DNA of 64,000 nucleotides from Patescibacteria group bacterium (GCA_049295615.1 JBAQQZ010000070.1:11265-75264); one strand, 5' to 3'. Shown: positions 2,289 through 32,499, counted from the stretch's first letter. Notes: generated from the sequence alone by a model not told the origin. Translations and numbers: made by a program.

Positions 2289-2872
2289 ACGAGAGGTTGG
2301 ACTGTTGGTGATTCAGGCGCAGCGTCGGTCGATGCGGTTTCGAGGCCTTTCAGGACATCCGAAATTGCTGCGTTGCCTCGCAGAACTGCATAGTCGGGCA
2401 ACGCTTCGACACCCGCGACACCCAGGTGGTTCATAAAATCAAACGTGACGGAATATACGGGCTGGCCAAGGCGCGTGTCCTCTTTTTCTTCGATCAAGCC
2501 GCGCAACAACAAGTTACGCAAGATGAGCGACGACTGCACGCCGCGGATCTGTTCGAGTTCCGGCCGCGTCATCGGACCGCAATAGGCGATGACCGTCAAC
2601 GCTTCGAGTGACGGCCGTGTCAGCTCCCCTGTCGCTTCCATGGTGACGACGCGCGCCACGGCATCCGCGGCTTCAGGACGGGTGACAAGCTCATACGATG
2701 AGCCGTTCTGTTGGAGCATCACGCCGCTCCCCGCATCCAGCCGCACGCGAAGTTCGCCCAACGCCGTCTCGACGACGTAGGGTTTTTCACCTGTAGCGTC
2801 GCATAGTTGCTTGACGCTCATCGGCTTGGCAGCCGCGAACAGGATGGCTTCGAGGAGTTGGTCGGTTGTCAT
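2285..2872 (-). CDS. scpB: Segregation and condensation protein B
   Basis: LEAILFAAAKPMSVKQL... winged-helix ScpB pattern. 4-nt overlaps with both neighbours, directly downstream of scpA. Confidence 0.85.
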   Translation of the reverse strand: MTTDQLLEAILFAAAKPMSVKQLCDATGEKPYVVETALGELRVRLDAGSGVMLQQNGSSYELVTRPEAADAVARVVTMEATGELTRPSLEALTVIAYCGPMTRPELEQIRGVQSSLILRNLLLRGLIEEKEDTRLGQPVYSVTFDFMNHLGVAGVEALPDYAVLRGNAAISDVLKGLETASTDAAPESPTVQPLV

Positions 2873-3612
2873 ACGAATGAATGCGCCAGCGGGTCTTGCG
2901 CCGAGGCATCTGGATGGGCTTCAATGGAAATGTCTTCAAACATCTCACCTTGGGTCACACGCACGAACCGTTGCTTGACGAGTTCGAGCAGCGCCAAGAA
3001 ACTCACGACGACTTCGGGCTTCGATGCCTTGGCGCCGACGAACTCGTGGAACGTCATCTGCGCATGCTCGCGGATGCGCTTCAGCAAGCTGCCGATCTTC
3101 TCTTGGATATTGATGACGCGCTCGACCGCGGCCTCCGGCAACTTCCGCAACGGCTCGAGGCGCGAGATGACGCGTCGCATCAGTTCTGCGAGGCTGTCTG
3201 CCGTGACGCTGCTCGGCGGCGTAAATTTGGGTTCACGTTGCTTCATGGCGCGACGTTCGCGCGGGAACGAACGCAGACCGGACTTCCACATCTCGTCGAT
3301 CTCTTTCGACGCTTGGACGAACATCCGATAGCGGCGCAATTGCGTTTCGAGGTCCGGGCCTTCCTCCAGCTCTTGGTCGATAAGCGACGGCAAGAGCAGC
3401 TTGGACTTCATGTAAATCAGCTTCGCCGCAACAACGAGGAAGTCCGCCATTTCTTCGAGCGGGATGGTTTTTGCCTCTTCGACGTAGCGTACGAACTGGT
3501 CCGCAACGGCAGCCAACGACACGGTTGAGATGTTGAGCTCTTGGGACTCGACCAACTGCAAAAGGAGGTCTAATGGCCCCTCAAAGCGCTCTATCCGAAA
3601 CGTCACCGGCAC
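2869..3612 (-). CDS. scpA: Segregation and condensation protein A (kleisin)
   Basis: N-terminal FEGPLDLLLQLVESQELNISTVSLAAVADQF, typical of ScpA. Confidence 0.85.
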   Translation of the reverse strand: MPVTFRIERFEGPLDLLLQLVESQELNISTVSLAAVADQFVRYVEEAKTIPLEEMADFLVVAAKLIYMKSKLLLPSLIDQELEEGPDLETQLRRYRMFVQASKEIDEMWKSGLRSFPRERRAMKQREPKFTPPSSVTADSLAELMRRVISRLEPLRKLPEAAVERVINIQEKIGSLLKRIREHAQMTFHEFVGAKASKPEVVVSFLALLELVKQRFVRVTQGEMFEDISIEAHPDASAQDPLAHSFV

Positions 3613-23971: not shown

Positions 23972-25162
<1,191 letters not shown>

Positions 25163-25232
25163 AACGATGGTCGTGACTAGGTGTCGTCCTCGTGGGACGA
25201 AATCCTAAGGAATAAGTAATTTGAGTAGCAGC

Positions 25233-25261
25233 AATATAACAGGTGTCTTGAAACCTTGCAA
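25233..25261 (-). promoter_or_regulatory. Sigma70-like promoter upstream of tuf
   Basis: Minus strand TTGCAA-17 nt-TATATT, about 70 nt upstream of the tuf ATG. Confidence 0.45.
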
Positions 25262-25269
25262 GAGCTAAC

Positions 25270-25626
25270 CTAGCCTCCCGCTTCGTCATCGACCGGTTCG
25301 AGGTAAAAGCGTTCTTCCACTGTAATTCCGGGGGTTTCTGAACCTTCGACTCCCTGCGCGACCAAATCCGAGGCCACTTCGTCCATCCGGGCTTCAACGA
25401 TGTCCATCGCCTGCGCGGCCAAAATCTCCTCTACGCGAAGCTCTTCTTTCGACTTTTTGGGCGACTTAGAAGACGCTTTCGGCGGCTGGCCGACCATCCC
25501 CTCCCCAGCCAACGCCTCAAACTGTTCAAGCGGCAAAACAACGAGCGGCTCACGGCCGGCCGGGTCAGTAATGATGACAGGCACGCCAAGTTTGCGTGCG
25601 GATTCAAAAATGCGCTGGAGTGACAT
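25270..25626 (-). CDS. Hypothetical protein. The N-terminus resembles Phd/YefM antitoxin fold and the C-terminus is acidic
   Basis: KLGVPVIITDPAGREPLVVLPLEQFEAL resembles the Phd/YefM N-terminal pattern. No adjacent toxin gene seen. Confidence 0.4.
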   Translation of the reverse strand: MSLQRIFESARKLGVPVIITDPAGREPLVVLPLEQFEALAGEGMVGQPPKASSKSPKKSKEELRVEEILAAQAMDIVEARMDEVASDLVAQGVEGSETPGITVEERFYLEPVDDEAGG

Positions 25627-25728
25627 AGTTTTCCTTATCTAACAGGATGGGAGACGCCGAGGCAAGGGATCGACATATTCGTTGACATTCGCGCAAAAAA
25701 TTGCTTTCCTGCTTGCAGGAGGTGTCCC

Positions 25729-26118
25729 TTGAACGACATTTATACCATCAACGGCCACCGGATGCTCCTCATCCTGCGGTTCGTCGAGAAGTACGTCACG
25801 AGGCCCATGCTCGTTCGCCTTGGCGTCGTGCCCGAGCTGCCCAACATTATGCATCCATTCGGGGTCACCGCCTGGCTCGGCCAGATGGCAATCCGGGCGC
25901 CGCAACGCAAGACGCTCGAACAGATGCCTGCCGGAAAGCGGCACGACGCGCACTTCAACATCGAGATCGCGGCCGACGAAATCGTCGCGGCAACCAGCGG
26001 CCCGGAAGTCTGGGGTGGCTTGTCGGACGACGATAAGGACCAGCTCTCCGAGCTGCTCGTCCGCTTCATGCAACTCGTCGCGGGCGGCGAAATCCCCGAA
26101 CACGACCTCACGCGCTGA
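25729..26118 (+). CDS. Hypothetical protein (129 aa, TTG start)
   Basis: AGGAGG SD 6 nt upstream of TTG. Own terminator at 26141-26174. The antisense ORF 25639..26103 was rejected. Confidence 0.5.
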   Translation: MNDIYTINGHRMLLILRFVEKYVTRPMLVRLGVVPELPNIMHPFGVTAWLGQMAIRAPQRKTLEQMPAGKRHDAHFNIEIAADEIVAATSGPEVWGGLSDDDKDQLSELLVRFMQLVAGGEIPEHDLTR

Positions 26119-26140
26119 ACCACATGAGGCGCCACTCGCT

Positions 26141-26174
26141 CGACCCCGGTCATCACGATCGGGGTCGATTTTTT
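26141..26174 (+). terminator. Intrinsic terminator (copy 1 of a repeated hairpin)
   Basis: cgaccccg-gtcatcacgat-cggggtcg followed by attttttt. Confidence 0.7.
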
Positions 26175-26244
26175 ATACGTGACTGATTGACATCGAACGA
26201 ATTCCATGGCTTCATGCGGACGCATCCAACCAAGGAGGAAAGAG

Positions 26245-26868
26245 ATGGACCTTTTCACTGGCGCGTACGGCATCGTCGCGCTGCCGGACAGCATCACCGA
26301 ACGGAAGGTCAGGGACTTGGGGCGGCGGCCAATCGGCACCTCGCCTGATCCCCAGATCAAGAACAACGAGATCACGCGCCACGCCGAATTCTCGACGACG
26401 ACCGCGCACATCACGCTCTACCACGGCAAGCTCCGCGAGATCCCTCGCACGGAAGTTGAGATGATCCTGCGCACGCTGAAGCCGCTGTGCGGCAGCCCGA
26501 TCCTGTTCGACAAGATCGCGGTCTACGGCGGCAAGTTTTTGTTCCTCGATGTCGAGGTGACGCCGGAACTCCGGCTGGCGCATTTGGCCGCGCTCCACCT
26601 CGCGCACTCGCTTGACCGGAGCTCGGCGGCCAAAGCGACGGAAGAAGGCCTCAAGATGAGCGACGACGAACGCGCGAGCCTCGAGCGCTTCGGCCAACCG
26701 CTCACCTACGCGCTCGCGCGGCCGCACTTCACGCTGGCCTACAACAGCGGCGGATTCCCCAACTACCGTACACTCGGCCCGTTCGACGGCACGGGCCGGA
26801 TCGATCGCTTCGCCTTCGCGGAGATCGGCGAGTACGGCTCGGTGAAGAACATCATCCTCGAAGTCTAG
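26245..26868 (+). CDS. 2H phosphoesterase superfamily protein (LigT / cyclic phosphodiesterase-like)
   Basis: Two H-x-T-x motifs (AHITLYHG and PHFTLAYN) about 110 aa apart. AAGGAGG SD upstream of the ATG at 26245. Confidence 0.6.
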   Translation: MDLFTGAYGIVALPDSITERKVRDLGRRPIGTSPDPQIKNNEITRHAEFSTTTAHITLYHGKLREIPRTEVEMILRTLKPLCGSPILFDKIAVYGGKFLFLDVEVTPELRLAHLAALHLAHSLDRSSAAKATEEGLKMSDDERASLERFGQPLTYALARPHFTLAYNSGGFPNYRTLGPFDGTGRIDRFAFAEIGEYGSVKNIILEV

Positions 26869-26892
26869 CTGGAAACGGCGACACAACTCTTC

Positions 26893-26925
26893 GGCCCCGG
26901 TCAATACGATCGGGGTCGTTTTTCT
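26893..26925 (+). terminator. Intrinsic terminator (copy 2 of the repeated hairpin)
   Basis: ggccccg-gtcaatacgat-cggggtc followed by gtttttctt. Confidence 0.65.
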
Positions 26926-26928
26926 TAA

Positions 26929-27342
26929 ATGGAGTACAATACAAAAATACATATGCCGCTCACATCCTTTCTCGCCCAGCTCATCGGCTTGCTCTTGCTT
27001 GCAAGCGGAGCGTTCATGCTTTTCCAAAGTAAGGTTTTCATCAAAATCCTCAATGACATGACGGAAAACCGCACGACGTTGTTCATGGTCGGCGTCGCCG
27101 TGTTCATGGGCGGCGCTTCGATCGTGCTCACGCACAACGTCTGGAATGCCGGTCTCCTCCCTCTTGTCGTTACGCTCATGGGTTGGATCTGGGTCCTGCA
27201 CGGCCTCGCGTGCATCTTCGCCCCGAACCACGGCATCACGCGCCTGTTCCGGGCCTTCAACGTAGAAAAATATTGCTGGGCGTACGGGATTCTCTACTTC
27301 GCTATCGGGGCATGTCTGACGTACGCCGGATTCATGCGCTGA
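26929..27342 (+). CDS. Hypothetical 4-TM membrane protein
   Basis: 137-aa hydrophobic ORF. Start uncertain (ATG at 26929 or 26953). Confidence 0.5.
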   Translation: MEYNTKIHMPLTSFLAQLIGLLLLASGAFMLFQSKVFIKILNDMTENRTTLFMVGVAVFMGGASIVLTHNVWNAGLLPLVVTLMGWIWVLHGLACIFAPNHGITRLFRAFNVEKYCWAYGILYFAIGACLTYAGFMR

Positions 27343-27402
27343 TGGAATCAATTTGAAACAAAAATCCCGCCGCCTCGCCGGACGCAACTGAAAACTCGAA
27401 AT

Positions 27403-28251
27403 CTACTCTCCCCGTTCACGGTCGATCAACTGTTGCCTCAGGTCCATCAGTTCTTCGAGCTTATCGTCGATCCGTTCGAGGTCTTTCTTGATCGAGGTTT
27501 TGTCGCGGGTGTTCGCCTGAAGCTCCTGCTTGTTCGCGACATACATCGAAAGCGCGCGATCCAGGGCGTTGCGTACGAGGCGGACATTTATCTTCTTCGC
27601 CTTTAACGCCTCGTGCACACTGGCAAGCTCCTCGTCAGCGTCTTCTTCCCGTTCCGCTTGCCACCCTGCATCTTCCCCTTCCGCAAAACGCAAACGCTCT
27701 TCAGCCTCTTGGATTTTCTTATCCAACTCCGCTGTTTTCTTCCGTGTCACCGCGTTCAGTTGAGGACCGCCGCGATATCCCTTTTGCGCGGCCTGCGAAT
27801 GGATCGCTTGCTTGGCTTGATGAAGTGTGTCGATGATCGACTGGTACTCCAGCTGTGTCGGAGGATCTGAACGGCGGCTCAACATCTCGTCGCCATAGGC
27901 TTCTAAAATACCTGCATCATCTGGCTCTTCTTTTGCGAGGGTGCCGTACGCTTCACGCGCCAAATTGACGAATCCATTCTCCGACATCTCTTTCGCCGAC
28001 TCAAGCCTTGTCGCTGAATGCACGGGCGATTTTCTAAATGCCATGAGCAGGATCGTGCCCAGCATTTCCTTTTGAGAAAAAATATCATTGACCGTCGCGT
28101 CCTTTACGATCTGGAGCAGCTCTTCCGGCGATTCAGCAGCACGCGCCATCGCCAACAACTCCTCTCGACGATTCTTCGGCTTTTCCCGTTTCTGATCCTT
28201 CTTTTCCGCGAACGGGTTCGACGGCTTTTTCGGCACCTGCTCCATGCTCAT
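27403..28251 (-). CDS. Hypothetical Lys/Glu-rich coiled-coil protein
   Basis: 282-aa ORF with normal composition, unlike its antisense frames. No motif recognised. Confidence 0.5.
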   Translation of the reverse strand: MSMEQVPKKPSNPFAEKKDQKREKPKNRREELLAMARAAESPEELLQIVKDATVNDIFSQKEMLGTILLMAFRKSPVHSATRLESAKEMSENGFVNLAREAYGTLAKEEPDDAGILEAYGDEMLSRRSDPPTQLEYQSIIDTLHQAKQAIHSQAAQKGYRGGPQLNAVTRKKTAELDKKIQEAEERLRFAEGEDAGWQAEREEDADEELASVHEALKAKKINVRLVRNALDRALSMYVANKQELQANTRDKTSIKKDLERIDDKLEELMDLRQQLIDRERGE

Positions 28252-28320
28252 AGTTTTTGAAGGATACGCTCACGCCCGGCAAAACAAAAGCCGCCCAAGA
28301 TGCAGGCGGCTTTGATGAGA

Positions 28321-28779
28321 TCACTCCGGCAAGAGCGGCTTGAGCTGCGCGACCAACATGTCGACGAGCGCGCGGTCGACGCGGATGCGTGACCATTGCG
28401 GCAGGTCGCCAGGCGTTTCGTCGGTCCACGGCTGGTTCCCGAAGATGCGCATCTCCCCCTTCTTGTAGCGCGGGATACCATGGAGGTGCAGCAGCGGGAG
28501 CTGGTTTCCCAACTGGAAATAGTTGAAGTGGTCGGCGCGGAACAGGTCGTGCCGGCGCAACGCGCACTCGATGTCTTCCATGACGCCGGGCAAAGAAAGC
28601 ATCTCACCCTCGTTCGTCTGCGACTGGAGCCGCACGCCTTCGCGGCGGCAAAAGATGATGTAACTCCCCAGAGTATGCTAGTTCCACGAGATTTCGAGGC
28701 ACCAATGCGGGTACACCTTGAGCACCGCGCCTTCGTACTTCTTTTCAGGATCCCAATGGCGAATGAGCGGATCGGACAT
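28321..28779 (-). pseudogene. HIT (histidine triad) family hydrolase gene interrupted by a single in-frame TAG at 28678-28680
   Basis: ATG at 28777-28779 with GGAGG 8 nt upstream. Reads MSDPLIRHWDPEKKYEGAVLKVYPHWCLEISWN-TAG-HTLGSYIIFCRREGV...LPLLHLHGIPRYKKGE (HxHxH triad), all in one frame. Confidence 0.65.
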
Positions 28780-28829
28780 GAATGGACCTCCGTGGGAGGG
28801 AGGTAACAGGAAAATATCAAAATGAGCAA

Positions 28830-29654
28830 GAAAGCACGCCTCCTGGAGTGATTAGGCCCCGGTACCGTACAAAAGCTTCTTTGAAGAAGAACAAAAAAAC
28901 GTATTTTGACGCAAATAAACCGAGGATCTAGATATTACTTTTTCCTTTGTTACAGACGGAACAAAGCGTTTGCAGATTCTCTAAAATTGTTTCACCGCCC
29001 CTCGACCATGGCTTGATGTGATCTACCTCAAGAGTCCTATTACCAATTTCTTTTGCCGGTGACCATCCGCAATGCTGACATGTGTACCTATCCCTCTGGA
29101 GCACAATATGACGAAGTCTCAGGTTGATATCGCGTCGAGTTTTATGACCCGAATTTCCTCCACTTCTATTCGTAGCTGGGATTATCGCTATACTCTCTCC
29201 CTCCTCTGCCCAATTGGCAAAAAGCTTAAGAGCATTGTTATATGTGCCAAATCTTTTTTTGTATGTGCCAGAATGAAATTGAGAAAAATGAGCATCCAAA
29301 TCACCCTGACTTGGCTGTCTCCCAAGAAGGTCCCAAACTTGGGACAAATTACTAAATAAATCTTCCTCGCCAATCGTATTATTGCCTCTTTTAACTATAC
29401 TCATTCCAGCTTTATGCAATGCTTCGTTCCAACTGCCGAACCTCCTTTTATAAACCCCTCTTTTAAAATTGCCGTTCTGTTCGTACTCATCCATCGTCAG
29501 CGATTTCTTATTTAATTTCTTGCCAACGGATATCAAGTCCTCCAGAAGTTCATCTTCTGGAATACCCGCGTTTCGTCTTAATTTTATTGTGTATTCCATG
29601 TTGCGATCACTTTTCTCAAGACTAACATAACAATATAACCCTGCGAAAGAGCCT
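28830..29654 (-). mobile_element. AT-rich cassette carrying a free-standing HNH homing-type endonuclease
   Basis: Visible drop in GC relative to both flanks. Lies between the fusA terminator and the HIT gene. No repeats or integrase seen. Confidence 0.35.
28928..29599 (-). CDS. HNH endonuclease with two N-terminal homing-endonuclease-associated repeats
   Basis: C-terminal CQHCGWSP...LEVDHIKPWSRGGETILENLQTLCSVCNKGK. Tandem repeats (YEQNGNFKRGVYKRRFGSWNEALHKAG / FHSGTYKKRFGTYNNALKLF). Confidence 0.8.
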   Translation of the reverse strand: MEYTIKLRRNAGIPEDELLEDLISVGKKLNKKSLTMDEYEQNGNFKRGVYKRRFGSWNEALHKAGMSIVKRGNNTIGEEDLFSNLSQVWDLLGRQPSQGDLDAHFSQFHSGTYKKRFGTYNNALKLFANWAEEGESIAIIPATNRSGGNSGHKTRRDINLRLRHIVLQRDRYTCQHCGWSPAKEIGNRTLEVDHIKPWSRGGETILENLQTLCSVCNKGKSNI

Positions 29655-29686
29655 CAAATCAAAAGCGAGCCTCGCGGCTCGCTTTC
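29655..29686 (-). terminator. Intrinsic terminator downstream of fusA
   Basis: Minus strand GCGAGCC-gcga-GGCTCGC followed by TTTTGATTTG. Confidence 0.65.
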
Positions 29687-29692
29687 TGATTC

Positions 29693-31774
29693 TTATTTCT
29701 TCGCCCGTCCTTCGACAATCGCCGCCTGGATGTTCTGCGGGGTCTCGGCGTAGTGGTCGAATTCCATCGAGTAGGAGGCGCGGCCTTGGGTCATGGAACG
29801 GAGCGACGTCGAGTAGCCGAACATTTCGGCGAGCGGGACGAAGGCGTTGATGACCTTGGCGCCGGAGCGGTCGGTCATCTCATTGACCTGGCCGCGCTTG
29901 GAGTTCAAGTCACCGATGACGTCACCCATGTAGAGTTCCGGGGTGACGACTTCCACCTTCATGATCGGCTCGAGGATCGCGATGCCGCCCTTAGCACAGG
30001 CGTCCTTGAAGGCCATCGAGGCAGCGACTTTAAACGCGGCTTCGGACGAGTCGACGTCGTGGTACGAACCATCGAACACCGTGGCTTGGATGTCGACCAC
30101 CGGGTAGCCGGCGATCACACCACGCGTCATGGCTTCTTGGATGCCTTTGTTGATCGGCTGGATGTACTCGCGCGGGATCACGCCACCCTTCACGTCGTCG
30201 ACGAACTCGTAACCTTTGCCGCGTTCCATCGGCGCCAGCTTGATGACGCAGTGCCCGTATTGGCCACGGCCACCGGATTGGCGGATGAACTTGCCTTCGC
30301 CTTCGGCTTCTTTCTTGAGCGATTCTTTGTAGGAGACTTGCGGCTTGCCGACGTTGGCTTCGACTTTGAATTCGCGCTTCATGCGGTCGACGATGATCTC
30401 GAGGTGGAGTTCGCCCATGCCCGCGATGAGCGTCTGGAGCGTCTCTTCGTCGGTGCGCACGCGGAACGACGGGTCTTCTTCGGCGAGCTTCTGGAGCGCG
30501 ACGCCCATCTTTTCCTGGTCTGCCTTGGTCTTCGGCTCGATGGCGATTTCGATGACCGGTTCCGGGATCGAGATCGATTCCAGTACGATCGGGTGGTTCT
30601 CGTCGCAAATCGTGTGGCCGGTGAACGTGCTCTTCAAACCCACGGCCGCGGCGATTTCGCCGGCGTACACGTGGTCCACGTCTTCGCGGTTGTTGGAGTG
30701 CATGCGCACAATGCGCCCGATGCGTTCGCGTTCGCCGTTGGTGCTGTTCAAGACGTAGGAGCCCGCGGCCAAGTTGCCGGAGTACACGCGGAAGAACACG
30801 AGCTTGCCGACGAACGGGTCGGACATGACCTTGAAGGCCAGCGCGGCAAACGGCGCGTCGTCGTCCGGTTTGCAGTCGATCATCTTTTCCTCGTCATCCA
30901 CGGCGTGGCCTTGCATCGGCGGGATGTCGAGCGGCGACGGCAGGTAATACGTGACGGCGTCGAGCAAAAATTGCACGCCCTTGTTCTTGAGCGCCGAGCC
31001 GCACAAAATCGGGAACATGTCTTGCGCGATGACGGCCTTGCGGAGCGCCGCGCGGATTTCTTCGACAGACAATTCCTCGCCCGCGAGGTGCTTGTTCATG
31101 AAAGCCTCGTCGGTTTCGGACAACGCATCGAGCAGGTTGGCGCGCGCGGCTTTGGCGGCGTCGAGCATCTCGGCCGGCACGTCGACTTCTTCGATGTCCT
31201 GGCCCATCTCGTCACGGTACATTTCCGCTTTCATGGTGATCAGGTCGATGATCCCGATGAACTTGTCTTCGGCGCCGATCGGCAATTGGATCGGGTAGGC
31301 GCGCTTGGTCAAACGGTCGTGGATCGAGGCGACGTCCTTCACGAAATCCGCGCCCATGCGGTCGAGCTTGTTCACAAAACAGATACGCGGCACGTGGTAC
31401 TTATCCGCCTGGCGCCACACGGTTTCGGATTGCGATTCCACACCAGCCACGCCGTCGAACACCGTGACGGCGCCGTCGAGAACGCGCAACGAACGCTGCA
31501 CTTCAATCGTGAAGTCGATGTGTCCCGGGGTGTCGATCAAGTTGAGGCGATGGCCTTTCCAAAAACAGGTCGTGGCGGCCGCCGTGATGGTGATGCCGCG
31601 CTCGCGCTCCTGTTCCATCCAGTCCATGGTGGCTTCACCTTCGTGTACTTCACCGATCTTGTGCTTGCGGCCGGTGTAAAACAACACGCGCTCGGAGACG
31701 GTGGTCTTTCCGGCGTCGATGTGGGCAATGATCCCGAAGTTGCGGGTATCTTTGAGAGAGTATTCGCGGGGCAT
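29693..31774 (-). CDS. fusA: Elongation factor G
   Basis: [21 protein letters not shown] motifs. ATG at MPREYSL preferred over the upstream TTG. Confidence 0.96.
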
Positions 31775-31779
31775 AGTGG

Positions 31780-32499
31780 TTATTGAGTCCAATGGCTTGA
31801 TTTCAGAGTAAGTTTTTTCGTCGTCTTGATTGCACCGAGAGTATTCGGATCGATTTCGTCGAGTTGCAGCGTGTCCGCATATGTTCCTTTTCCAGTGTCA
31901 CGAGAGGCGAGGCCATTGACGAGACCGTCCGATTGGAGCTGAAGGTCAATGATCTGTCCGTAGCCGTTCTTCCCTGGGATGCCGACAGGATCAGAGAATT
32001 CTATAAAGCTCCCTTCGTTATTGAGACCATCAGCATCATAGGCCTCTGCATATTCGCCAATAATATTCGGCTGGCCATTCTGCTTCTTATCGAGCCAAGG
32101 AATTGTGCTCGTCGCGGGGTTATACATCGCGAAAAAAAGCTGGGGTCCCGACAGTTCGTTACACGCGACAGAGAAGCGCCATCCTTCGTCCAGCTTCTTC
32201 TGAATCGCGTCATTGAAGTCGGCCGCAAATTTCACACCGGCTTGCTGTGAGAAATAGGTGTACACCTGGCTTCCCTGCCACTGTGACAAGGCCGCCATAT
32301 CGATATGGGAACTGTTCGTCAGGCAAGAGCGAATAGGCAAAACCTGTGGCGTGGACGTTGCGCTCGTGTCGCTCGAGGCAATTGCTTGAGATTGGCTAAC
32401 ATCTTGCGACAGGTTCCCCGAACATCCCGCACCCATCAAAACCAAAAGCCCGGCCGCGACGACCAAGGCTCGGACTGACGCGCGCGGGCCATCGTCCAT
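31780..32499 (-). CDS. Hypothetical lipoprotein inserted between rpsG and fusA
   Basis: Signal peptide plus lipobox ([12 protein letters not shown]). Stop lies 5 nt before the fusA ATG. GC visibly lower than the flanks. Confidence 0.55.

Follow-up and report, generated by a model that had tools for sequence, protein, structure and literature searches.

A probable gene-turnover slot with cargo of mixed age between fusA and tuf in Candidatus Uhrbacteria

The rpsL-rpsG-fusA-tuf gene string is generally regarded as unchanging and frequently serves as a phylogenetic marker. Comparative genomics of many bacterial species has described chromosomal hotspots, flanked by core genes, at which genes are gained and lost (flexible genomic islets). 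Here we analyze a 64,000-nt stretch of DNA (GCA_049295615.1, JBAQQZ010000070.1:11265-75264; "the window") from a Candidatus Uhrbacteria (Patescibacteria) genome of 1.13 Mb in 78 contigs (98% complete), in which the minus strand reads rpsL, rpsG, a 239-aa lipoprotein-like open reading frame (ORF), fusA, a variable segment, tuf, and rpsJ with the S10 operon. Seven ORFs on both strands lie between fusA and tuf (25163-29692), all of them present as originally predicted from the sequence (g1 to g7; Table 1). The explanation that we favor, and that we consider probable, is that the str operon of Candidatus Uhrbacteria has a slot in which genes turn over throughout the lineage, and that this segment is what the slot contains in the present genome, with cargo of mixed ages. 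This kind of hotspot is already known, and full-text searches of the literature returned no account of a fusA-tuf hotspot in Patescibacteria; what is new is the description of such a slot in this lineage and inside the str operon.

To place the segment, we compared the locus across about 50 related Candidatus Uhrbacteria/Patescibacteria genomes. In 40 relatives, fusA and tuf were separated by 139 bp to 8 kb, and the fusA stop lay 15 bp to 7.6 kb from the start of g1, the gene immediately 5′ of tuf. The slot was empty, i.e., fusA and g1 were adjacent (15–233 bp), in nine non-redundant genomes (L036, L038, L041, L052, L063, L064, L068, L069, and L070), and the sister genome of the window (L049, support 99) has a slot of 443 bp with only a 109-aa ORF. 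When all ORFs of at least 60 aa were counted in the slots of non-redundant genomes, 95 of 128 were singletons without a relative in any other slot, and a tree of 35 genomes built from the fusA and tuf proteins requires at least nine changes between the empty and the occupied state. The same anchors therefore enclose differing content or none, which is the pattern of a core-flanked turnover hotspot. The original prediction, which saw here a hotspot for acquired cargo, is borne out in this respect by the spacing, the singletons, and the repeated switches of state, and the gene set and order of the window are not conserved across the lineage, as they would be in an ancestral rather than accessory segment.

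A few cargo families recurred between genomes, the commonest being a ~600-aa ABC transporter found in six of them (L004, L009, L053, L058, L060, and L061), followed by an ADP-ribosylglycohydrolase in three. The transporter looks like a peptide or bacteriocin exporter. Some of the six genomes also have a C39 peptidase, and in L009 a C39-type peptidase-like ORF follows the transporter in the slot. Pfam matches among 87 cargo ORFs of the relatives included ABC_tran, E1-E2 (P-type) ATPase, DHO_dh (DHODH), pyrimidine 5′-nucleotidase, phosphatases, Fpg, HAD, SDR, APH, VanW, M16 peptidase, NUDIX, His_Phos_1, and AAA_33, along with one reverse transcriptase and one PD-(D/E)XK nuclease. Overall, the cargo of the relatives consists mostly of transporters and metabolic enzymes, an ordinary flexible gene pool that is not enriched in defense genes.

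The position of g1 determines where the slot ends. Scanning one genome per species with a profile built from an alignment of eight g1 sequences yielded 45 loci, and in all 45 g1 was followed by tuf-rpsJ wherever the locus extended far enough, while its upstream neighbor was either fusA or variable cargo. Among the family members whose gaps were compared, nearly all also have a g1 homologue immediately upstream of tuf, and other families of the class contain g1-like ORFs. Since g1 precedes tuf-rpsJ at all 45 loci, it is not cargo but the downstream anchor of the slot and a conserved member of the operon region, and this fixed adjacency means that the variable slot lies between fusA and g1 rather than, as first proposed, between fusA and tuf. 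Accordingly, the synteny comparison suggested alongside the original prediction placed the boundaries at the fusA stop and just upstream of g1: DNA homology between the window and its relatives stops at 29690-29697, at the fusA stop codon, and restarts at 25627-25675.

The protein encoded by g1 had been described as a Phd/YefM-like orphan, and only the first half of this description stands. Its N-terminal ~40 residues resemble the N-domain of Phd/YefM type II antitoxins, with matches to the PF02604 profile in 13 of 19 family members (best 1.1e-6). It differs from these antitoxins in its fixed site before tuf, in a linker that is variable, long, and acidic in the alignment of the 19 members, in its C-terminal EERFYLEP, and in having no toxin gene next to it at any of the 45 loci, so that it does not form part of a type II toxin–antitoxin pair. 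It may instead be an unrecognized translation-associated protein. For annotation, the Phd-like g1 is best described as a conserved neighbor of tuf and not as the antitoxin of a mobile pair.

Both edges of the slot carry transcription signals of their own. A terminator hairpin lies directly 3′ of the fusA stop in the window and keeps this position in L037 and L084, and tuf has its own near-consensus promoter, both as first described. In most of the ~50 genomes the tuf promoter follows the consensus CTTGCR-N16-18-TGnTAnnnT, 76–121 nt 5′ of the tuf ATG. This extended −10 promoter belongs to tuf itself and is strongly conserved in the family, so that transcription of tuf and the S10 operon is probably separate from that of rpsL-rpsG-fusA in this lineage. 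The operon would hence already be cut at the slot, with the fusA terminator on one side, g1 next, and the tuf promoter on the other, and since it is cut transcriptionally on both sides, extra genes between the fusA terminator and g1 would do little harm.

Gene entry and exit would most likely proceed by homologous recombination in the very conserved flanks, i.e., fusA on one side and g1-tuf on the other. No recombinase, integrase, or transposase was among the Pfam matches of the window proteins; target-site duplications and terminal or flanking repeats were absent around both the island and the HNH endonuclease gene g7; and no tRNA gene was evident on reading the sequence of the segment, no tRNA scan having been run. 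Site-specific integration is thus unlikely, and the segment does not have the features of an integrative mobile element or genomic island. In all these respects the slot resembles the flexible genomic islets, in which the same conserved pair surrounds differing accessory genes, many sites are empty, integrases and repeats are lacking, and turnover is attributed to homologous recombination in the flanks. It differs from them in its location within the normally invariant rpsL-rpsG-fusA-tuf string of an ultra-small Patescibacteria genome, in that the comparison is between genera rather than strains, and in that some of its cargo is old and shared.

With respect to this cargo, the slot of the window would be a mosaic of three ages, composed of old residents, local additions, and a recently arrived HNH gene. 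The old residents would be the HIT gene (g6), which follows fusA on the same strand, and the 2H phosphoesterase gene (g3) and g2, which lie on the opposite strand and point away from g1. Orthologues of HIT were found at the same slot in L035, L037, L039, and L084, homologues of g2 in L037, L042, and L084, and orthologues of 2H adjoining g1 and pointing away from it in L035, L083, and L084, with g2 intervening in the window. Identities to the window proteins were 48–57% for HIT, 51–57% for 2H, and 35–37% for g2, compared with 45–50% for g1 of the same genomes. These genomes agree in how the genes are oriented relative to fusA and g1, and the order of 2H and g2 differs. Reading from fusA, the slot of L037 contains HIT and a TPR-like protein, followed on the other strand by g2 and a small lipoprotein; that of L035 a 444-aa coiled-coil protein and HIT, followed on the other strand by NUDIX, a histidine phosphatase (His_Phos_1), and 2H; and that of L084 a 63-aa ORF, HIT, and VanW, followed on the other strand by an AAA_33/Zeta-type kinase, a histidine phosphatase, g2, and 2H. 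In each of the three, g1 and tuf come next. In L083, fusA is followed by SDR and 2H on the opposite strand and then g1.

Since other genera hold HIT, 2H, and g2 at the same slot, these three genes are old and not recently acquired, and here the original prediction of acquired cargo has to be revised: they are to be annotated as long-term residents and not as fresh imports. Their GC content at third codon positions (GC3), at 0.82–0.88, is within the top 1–3% of the genome and matches that of fusA (0.82) and rpsG even though they are accessory genes, which is consistent with long residence at the locus.

Several observations weigh against the turnover explanation or limit it. The six genomes with old residents (L035, L037, L039, L042, L083, and L084) are not the closest relatives of the window on the tree, and closer ones lack HIT, 2H, and g2; this patchiness fits old vertical inheritance followed by many losses as well as it fits transfer between lineages. 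No direct sign of recombination that could separate the two histories was found: sliding-window nucleotide identity along fusA and tuf revealed no breakpoint or switch of nearest neighbor near the slot, and nucleotide identity seems to be dominated by composition. The recurrence of enzymes acting on nucleotides or RNA ends (2H, HIT, NUDIX, histidine phosphatase, and the P-loop kinase of L084) could mean that the content is non-random, and an assembly in 78 contigs leaves room for local assembly error.

The third of these points leads to the alternative that survives best, which we nevertheless regard as rather unlikely, namely that the segment is a variable module for nucleotide or RNA-end processing (healing), kept beside translation-factor genes for a functional reason. 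On this account, damaged RNA ends would be trimmed, or signaling nucleotides degraded, by 2H and HIT together with the NUDIX, histidine phosphatase, and polynucleotide-kinase-like P-loop kinase of relatives. The recurrent placement of 2H beside g1 in L035, L083, and L084 and of HIT downstream of fusA in L035, L037, L084, and the window fits this account, as do the additional NUDIX and His_Phos_1 genes of L035, the His_Phos_1 and AAA_33/Zeta_toxin-type kinase genes of L084, the very high GC3 that 2H, HIT, and g2 share with the neighboring translation genes, and the more distant 2H homologues, which sit among RNase T, NUDIX, and HAD genes. However, the set is never complete and its order never the same, most genomes of the family lack these genes at the slot and nine slots are empty, the HIT copy of the window is broken, a ligase is missing, and small hydrolases are a common component of any flexible gene pool. 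A related claim, which we judge unlikely, is that the slot is not neutral and that its end-processing kit (2H, HIT, and g2, with NUDIX, histidine phosphatase, and P-loop kinase in relatives) is tied to the translation-factor genes and g1. If this were true, the kit could have a role such as the healing of cleaved tRNA or rRNA ends in ultra-small symbionts.

Returning to turnover as the favored explanation, g7 is the member of the segment that most clearly carries the marks of a newcomer. It encodes a free-standing HNH endonuclease with two HNH_repeat domains (Pfam, 1.6e-29) and an HNH domain (7.5e-15), scoring 102 bits against PF18780 (cut-off 26) and 55 bits against PF01844 (cut-off 21), which places it in this class of proteins. 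Its sequence reads CQHC ... DH ... ENL ... CSVCN, with two CxxC pairs and the catalytic His/Asn. The gene has a GC content of 41% and a GC3 of 0.39, among the lowest 0.5% of long ORFs (genome median 0.68), and the GC profile falls to 42–45% across it compared with ~60% on either side; its earlier description as an AT-rich HNH endonuclease is thereby upheld. It is present in a single copy in the genome of the window. More than 400 homologues (best 62% identity) were found in Parcubacteria, Kaiserbacteria, Deltaproteobacteria, Bacteroidota, and Woesearchaeota, and DNA similarity to the nearest ones is limited to the ORF and ends at its ends. In all six contexts that we compared, the homologue is solitary and has different neighbors (gatCA/dnaG-rpoD; topA; NUDIX; an MmeI-type restriction–modification (R-M) system with a ParE pair; an AddA-like helicase; and a GmrSD-like gene), with no neighbor common to the six that could serve as a partner gene.

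Judging from these features, g7 appears to be a recently arrived, selfish HNH gene that now sits between the fusA terminator and HIT, and its foreign composition, solitary ORF-sized similarity, and varied neighbors suggest a putative homing activity. The closest described counterparts are the free-standing homing endonuclease genes of phages (T4 seg/mob) and other proteins combining PF18780 and PF01844. Like these, g7 is a solitary, foreign, ORF-sized unit that occupies an intergenic site beside a highly conserved gene, and it shares with them the HNH motif, two CxxC pairs, and two N-terminal homing-endonuclease-associated repeats. Unlike T4 seg/mob, it resides in a cellular chromosome as a single copy, and its homologues stand beside many different genes, with no preference for fusA seen. 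On the contig of P0012 (JGI 3300056388), an HNH homologue with 55% identity is immediately followed by a NUDIX gene, and the second gene after it is a 2H gene of the 2′-5′ RNA ligase type, an arrangement that recalls the HNH/HIT/2H neighborhood of the window and may be a coincidence.

The HIT gene next to g7 contains an internal TAG, as noted at the outset. Compared with the intact orthologues of three relatives, which read WQQHTLG, the window reads WN*HTLG, with the TAG at a conserved Gln codon, and the reading frame is thus interrupted at codon 34. A HIT affiliation is suggested by a profile of four g6 sequences, which matches the HIT protein 2oik (1.1e-7); the Pfam HIT score is below threshold (14.9 bits vs 21.5), and across the subfamily the motif is LLHLHGIP, the first His of the triad being replaced by Leu. 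TAG terminates 314 long ORFs in this genome and is therefore an ordinary stop, so that g6 is broken unless the base is an error; recoding of TAG was considered and is ruled out by the same count. In all, g6 is probably a young pseudogene, in which a CAG-to-TAG nonsense change would have been followed by decay and a presumed loss of function.

For the 2H gene, the assignment is based on motif and predicted fold. The two motifs, H55xT57 and H161xT163, are invariant in 13 sequences, and the AlphaFold2 (AF2) model (pLDDT 90) has as its best Foldseek matches the plant CPDase 1jh6, YjcG, LigT, and AKAP18-CD. The g3 protein itself is under the Pfam threshold, while its homologues P0127 and P0128 carry PF13563/PF02834. 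A PDB sequence search with 2H profiles returned nothing relevant (one spurious match at E 0.2 with a 4-sequence profile, none with a 13-sequence profile), and the protein was placed by the Foldseek fold search only. Taken together, motif and modeled fold identify g3 as a 2H phosphoesterase, in agreement with the original prediction. Compared with the LigT/CPDase-type enzymes (E. coli LigT 5ldm, Arabidopsis CPDase 1jh6, and B. subtilis YjcG 2d4g), it has the same pair of HxT motifs and is predicted to adopt the same fold (Foldseek probability 1.0, TM 0.5–0.6), and differs from them by a sequence identity of 12–15%, an insert of ~35 residues after the first strand, and a small family of 12 clusters.

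Upstream of g3, g2 had been called an orphan, which it is not: its family, although very rare, has 11 representatives in a set of 1.84 billion proteins. Its AF2 model (pLDDT 89) is all-helical and has no fold match in the PDB or in a library of viral structures. The genes g2 and 2H are each followed by a copy of a near-identical terminator hairpin, as first reported. The copies are 88% identical over 33 nt and form direct repeats 751 nt apart that flank the 2H gene; the chance expectation of such a pair in the window is none, and no further copy was found elsewhere in the window or in the 1.13-Mb genome. In L084, 2H and g2 are adjacent in the reverse order with no terminator between them. Reversed order and a hairpin-bracketed 2H suggest a local rearrangement.

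The two remaining genes, g4 and g5, are local additions that were seen at this slot in no relative. Of 400 class genomes searched, ~30 encode a protein of ~130 aa that resembles g4 (23–32% identity), in unrelated locations. A strong Shine-Dalgarno sequence had been claimed for all three plus-strand genes, and g4 has no convincing one. For g5, a search of 5.8 billion clusters returned only the protein itself, and no homologue was found in 400 genomes of the class; it has a marginal similarity (E 0.003) to the TPR-like protein that occupies the corresponding position in L037.

The mix of HNH, 2H, and HIT with an antitoxin-like protein had also been likened to a defense or counter-defense island, which would act against phages or host immune signals, a possibility that we now consider improbable. 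HNH domains do occur in many defense systems, and PADLOC run on eight window proteins matched the HNH protein to REase, PtuB, and ZorE; these matches are generic, the other seven proteins had none, and no PADLOC system or partner gene was found in the window, which thus does not amount to an anti-phage system, in keeping with the earlier remark that no recognized one was visible. Among 2H enzymes are Acb1-type inhibitors of CBASS, and the L035 orthologue gave a faint Acb1 match (E 0.046), yet by fold the 2H protein best matches the cellular enzymes CPDase and LigT. Genes of R-M, GmrSD, or OLD-like type are found close to some HNH homologues, but in other genomes the HNH gene stands solitary among housekeeping genes. 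The slot of one relative contains a reverse transcriptase with DRT-like matches; overall, PADLOC on the 87 cargo ORFs of the relatives returned generic ATPase matches, this one reverse transcriptase, and one candidate-family hit that was not located, without any system, and the cargo of the relatives is, as described above, mainly transport and metabolism. Finally, the supposed antitoxin g1 is a conserved neighbor of tuf without a toxin.

A phage origin of the segment was likewise rejected: a search against PHROGs gave only HNH families and a weak, sub-threshold membrane-protein match for the ORF with four transmembrane segments (E 0.0056), which also counts against a counter-defense role, and g2 had no match in the viral fold library. 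We consider an assembly artefact very improbable, most clearly so for the backbone and less so for the single TAG base and the HNH join. A chimeric metagenome join would then have produced the low-GC HNH segment or even the entire mosaic, and the TAG would be a sequencing error, as the 78 contigs, the abrupt jump in composition, and the single-base nature of the TAG might suggest. Against this, both HNH junctions are intergenic with the fusA terminator and the HIT Shine-Dalgarno sequence intact, the HIT/2H/g2/g1 backbone recurs in independent assemblies, and occupied slots are also found in single-contig genomes.

If the segment is, as we consider probable, one state of a turnover slot, rpsL-rpsG-fusA-tuf is not fixed here, and a whole family of Patescibacteria has this string split at one precise point that acts as a gene-exchange slot. 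Such a slot would be a well-defined site, simple to find, at which the flexible genes of uncultivated, ultra-small bacteria could be sampled, and a natural permissive site for genetics once these bacteria become tractable.

Table 1 Features of the fusA-tuf region, with positions counted from the first letter of the window.
Feature	Position	Strand	Description
tuf (EF-Tu)	23972..25162	-	
tuf promoter	25233..25261	-	TTGCAA-17-TGTTATATT; TATATT -10 with upstream TG
g1	25270..25626	-	conserved gene 5′ of tuf; Phd/YefM-like N-domain, variable linker, C-terminal EERFYLEP
g2	25729..26118	+	129-aa all-helical protein (predicted); rare family
Twin terminator hairpin, copy 1	26140..26172	+	3′ of g2
g3	26245..26868	+	2H phosphoesterase by HxT motifs and predicted fold; between the two hairpin copies
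Twin terminator hairpin, copy 2	26891..26923	+	3′ of the 2H gene
g4	26929..27342	+	137-aa protein, four transmembrane segments
g5	27403..28251	-	282-aa charged, coiled-coil-like ORFan
g6 terminator	28287-28313	-	
g6	28321..28779	-	probable HIT-superfamily gene; TAG at 28678-28680 (codon 34)
g7	28928..29599	-	free-standing HNH endonuclease gene (Pfam); foreign composition
fusA terminator hairpin	29662..29685	-	followed by TTTTGATTT on the minus strand
fusA (EF-G)	29693..31792	-	upstream anchor of the slot; DNA homology to relatives ends at the stop codon

Two further observations concern fusA and its upstream junction. The true start of fusA is probably the ATG at 31774, and the 239-aa lipoprotein-like ORF (31780-32499, minus strand) occupies the rpsG-fusA junction. 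This ORF has a signal peptide, the lipobox LMGAGC, and a GC3 of 0.58, and no homologue of it was found among ~65 loci of relatives; in the loci that cover the junction, the rpsG-fusA gap is 0–130 bp. With it, the operon carries another insertion, private to this genome. In a single-contig Uhrbacteria genome (L045/L020, OY970357.1), fusA is read in two frames separated by a one-base shift, with residues 7-368 at 1277-2362 and residues 369-595 at 2364-3044. This could be a frameshifted essential gene or a homopolymer error of long-read sequencing, the latter being more likely.

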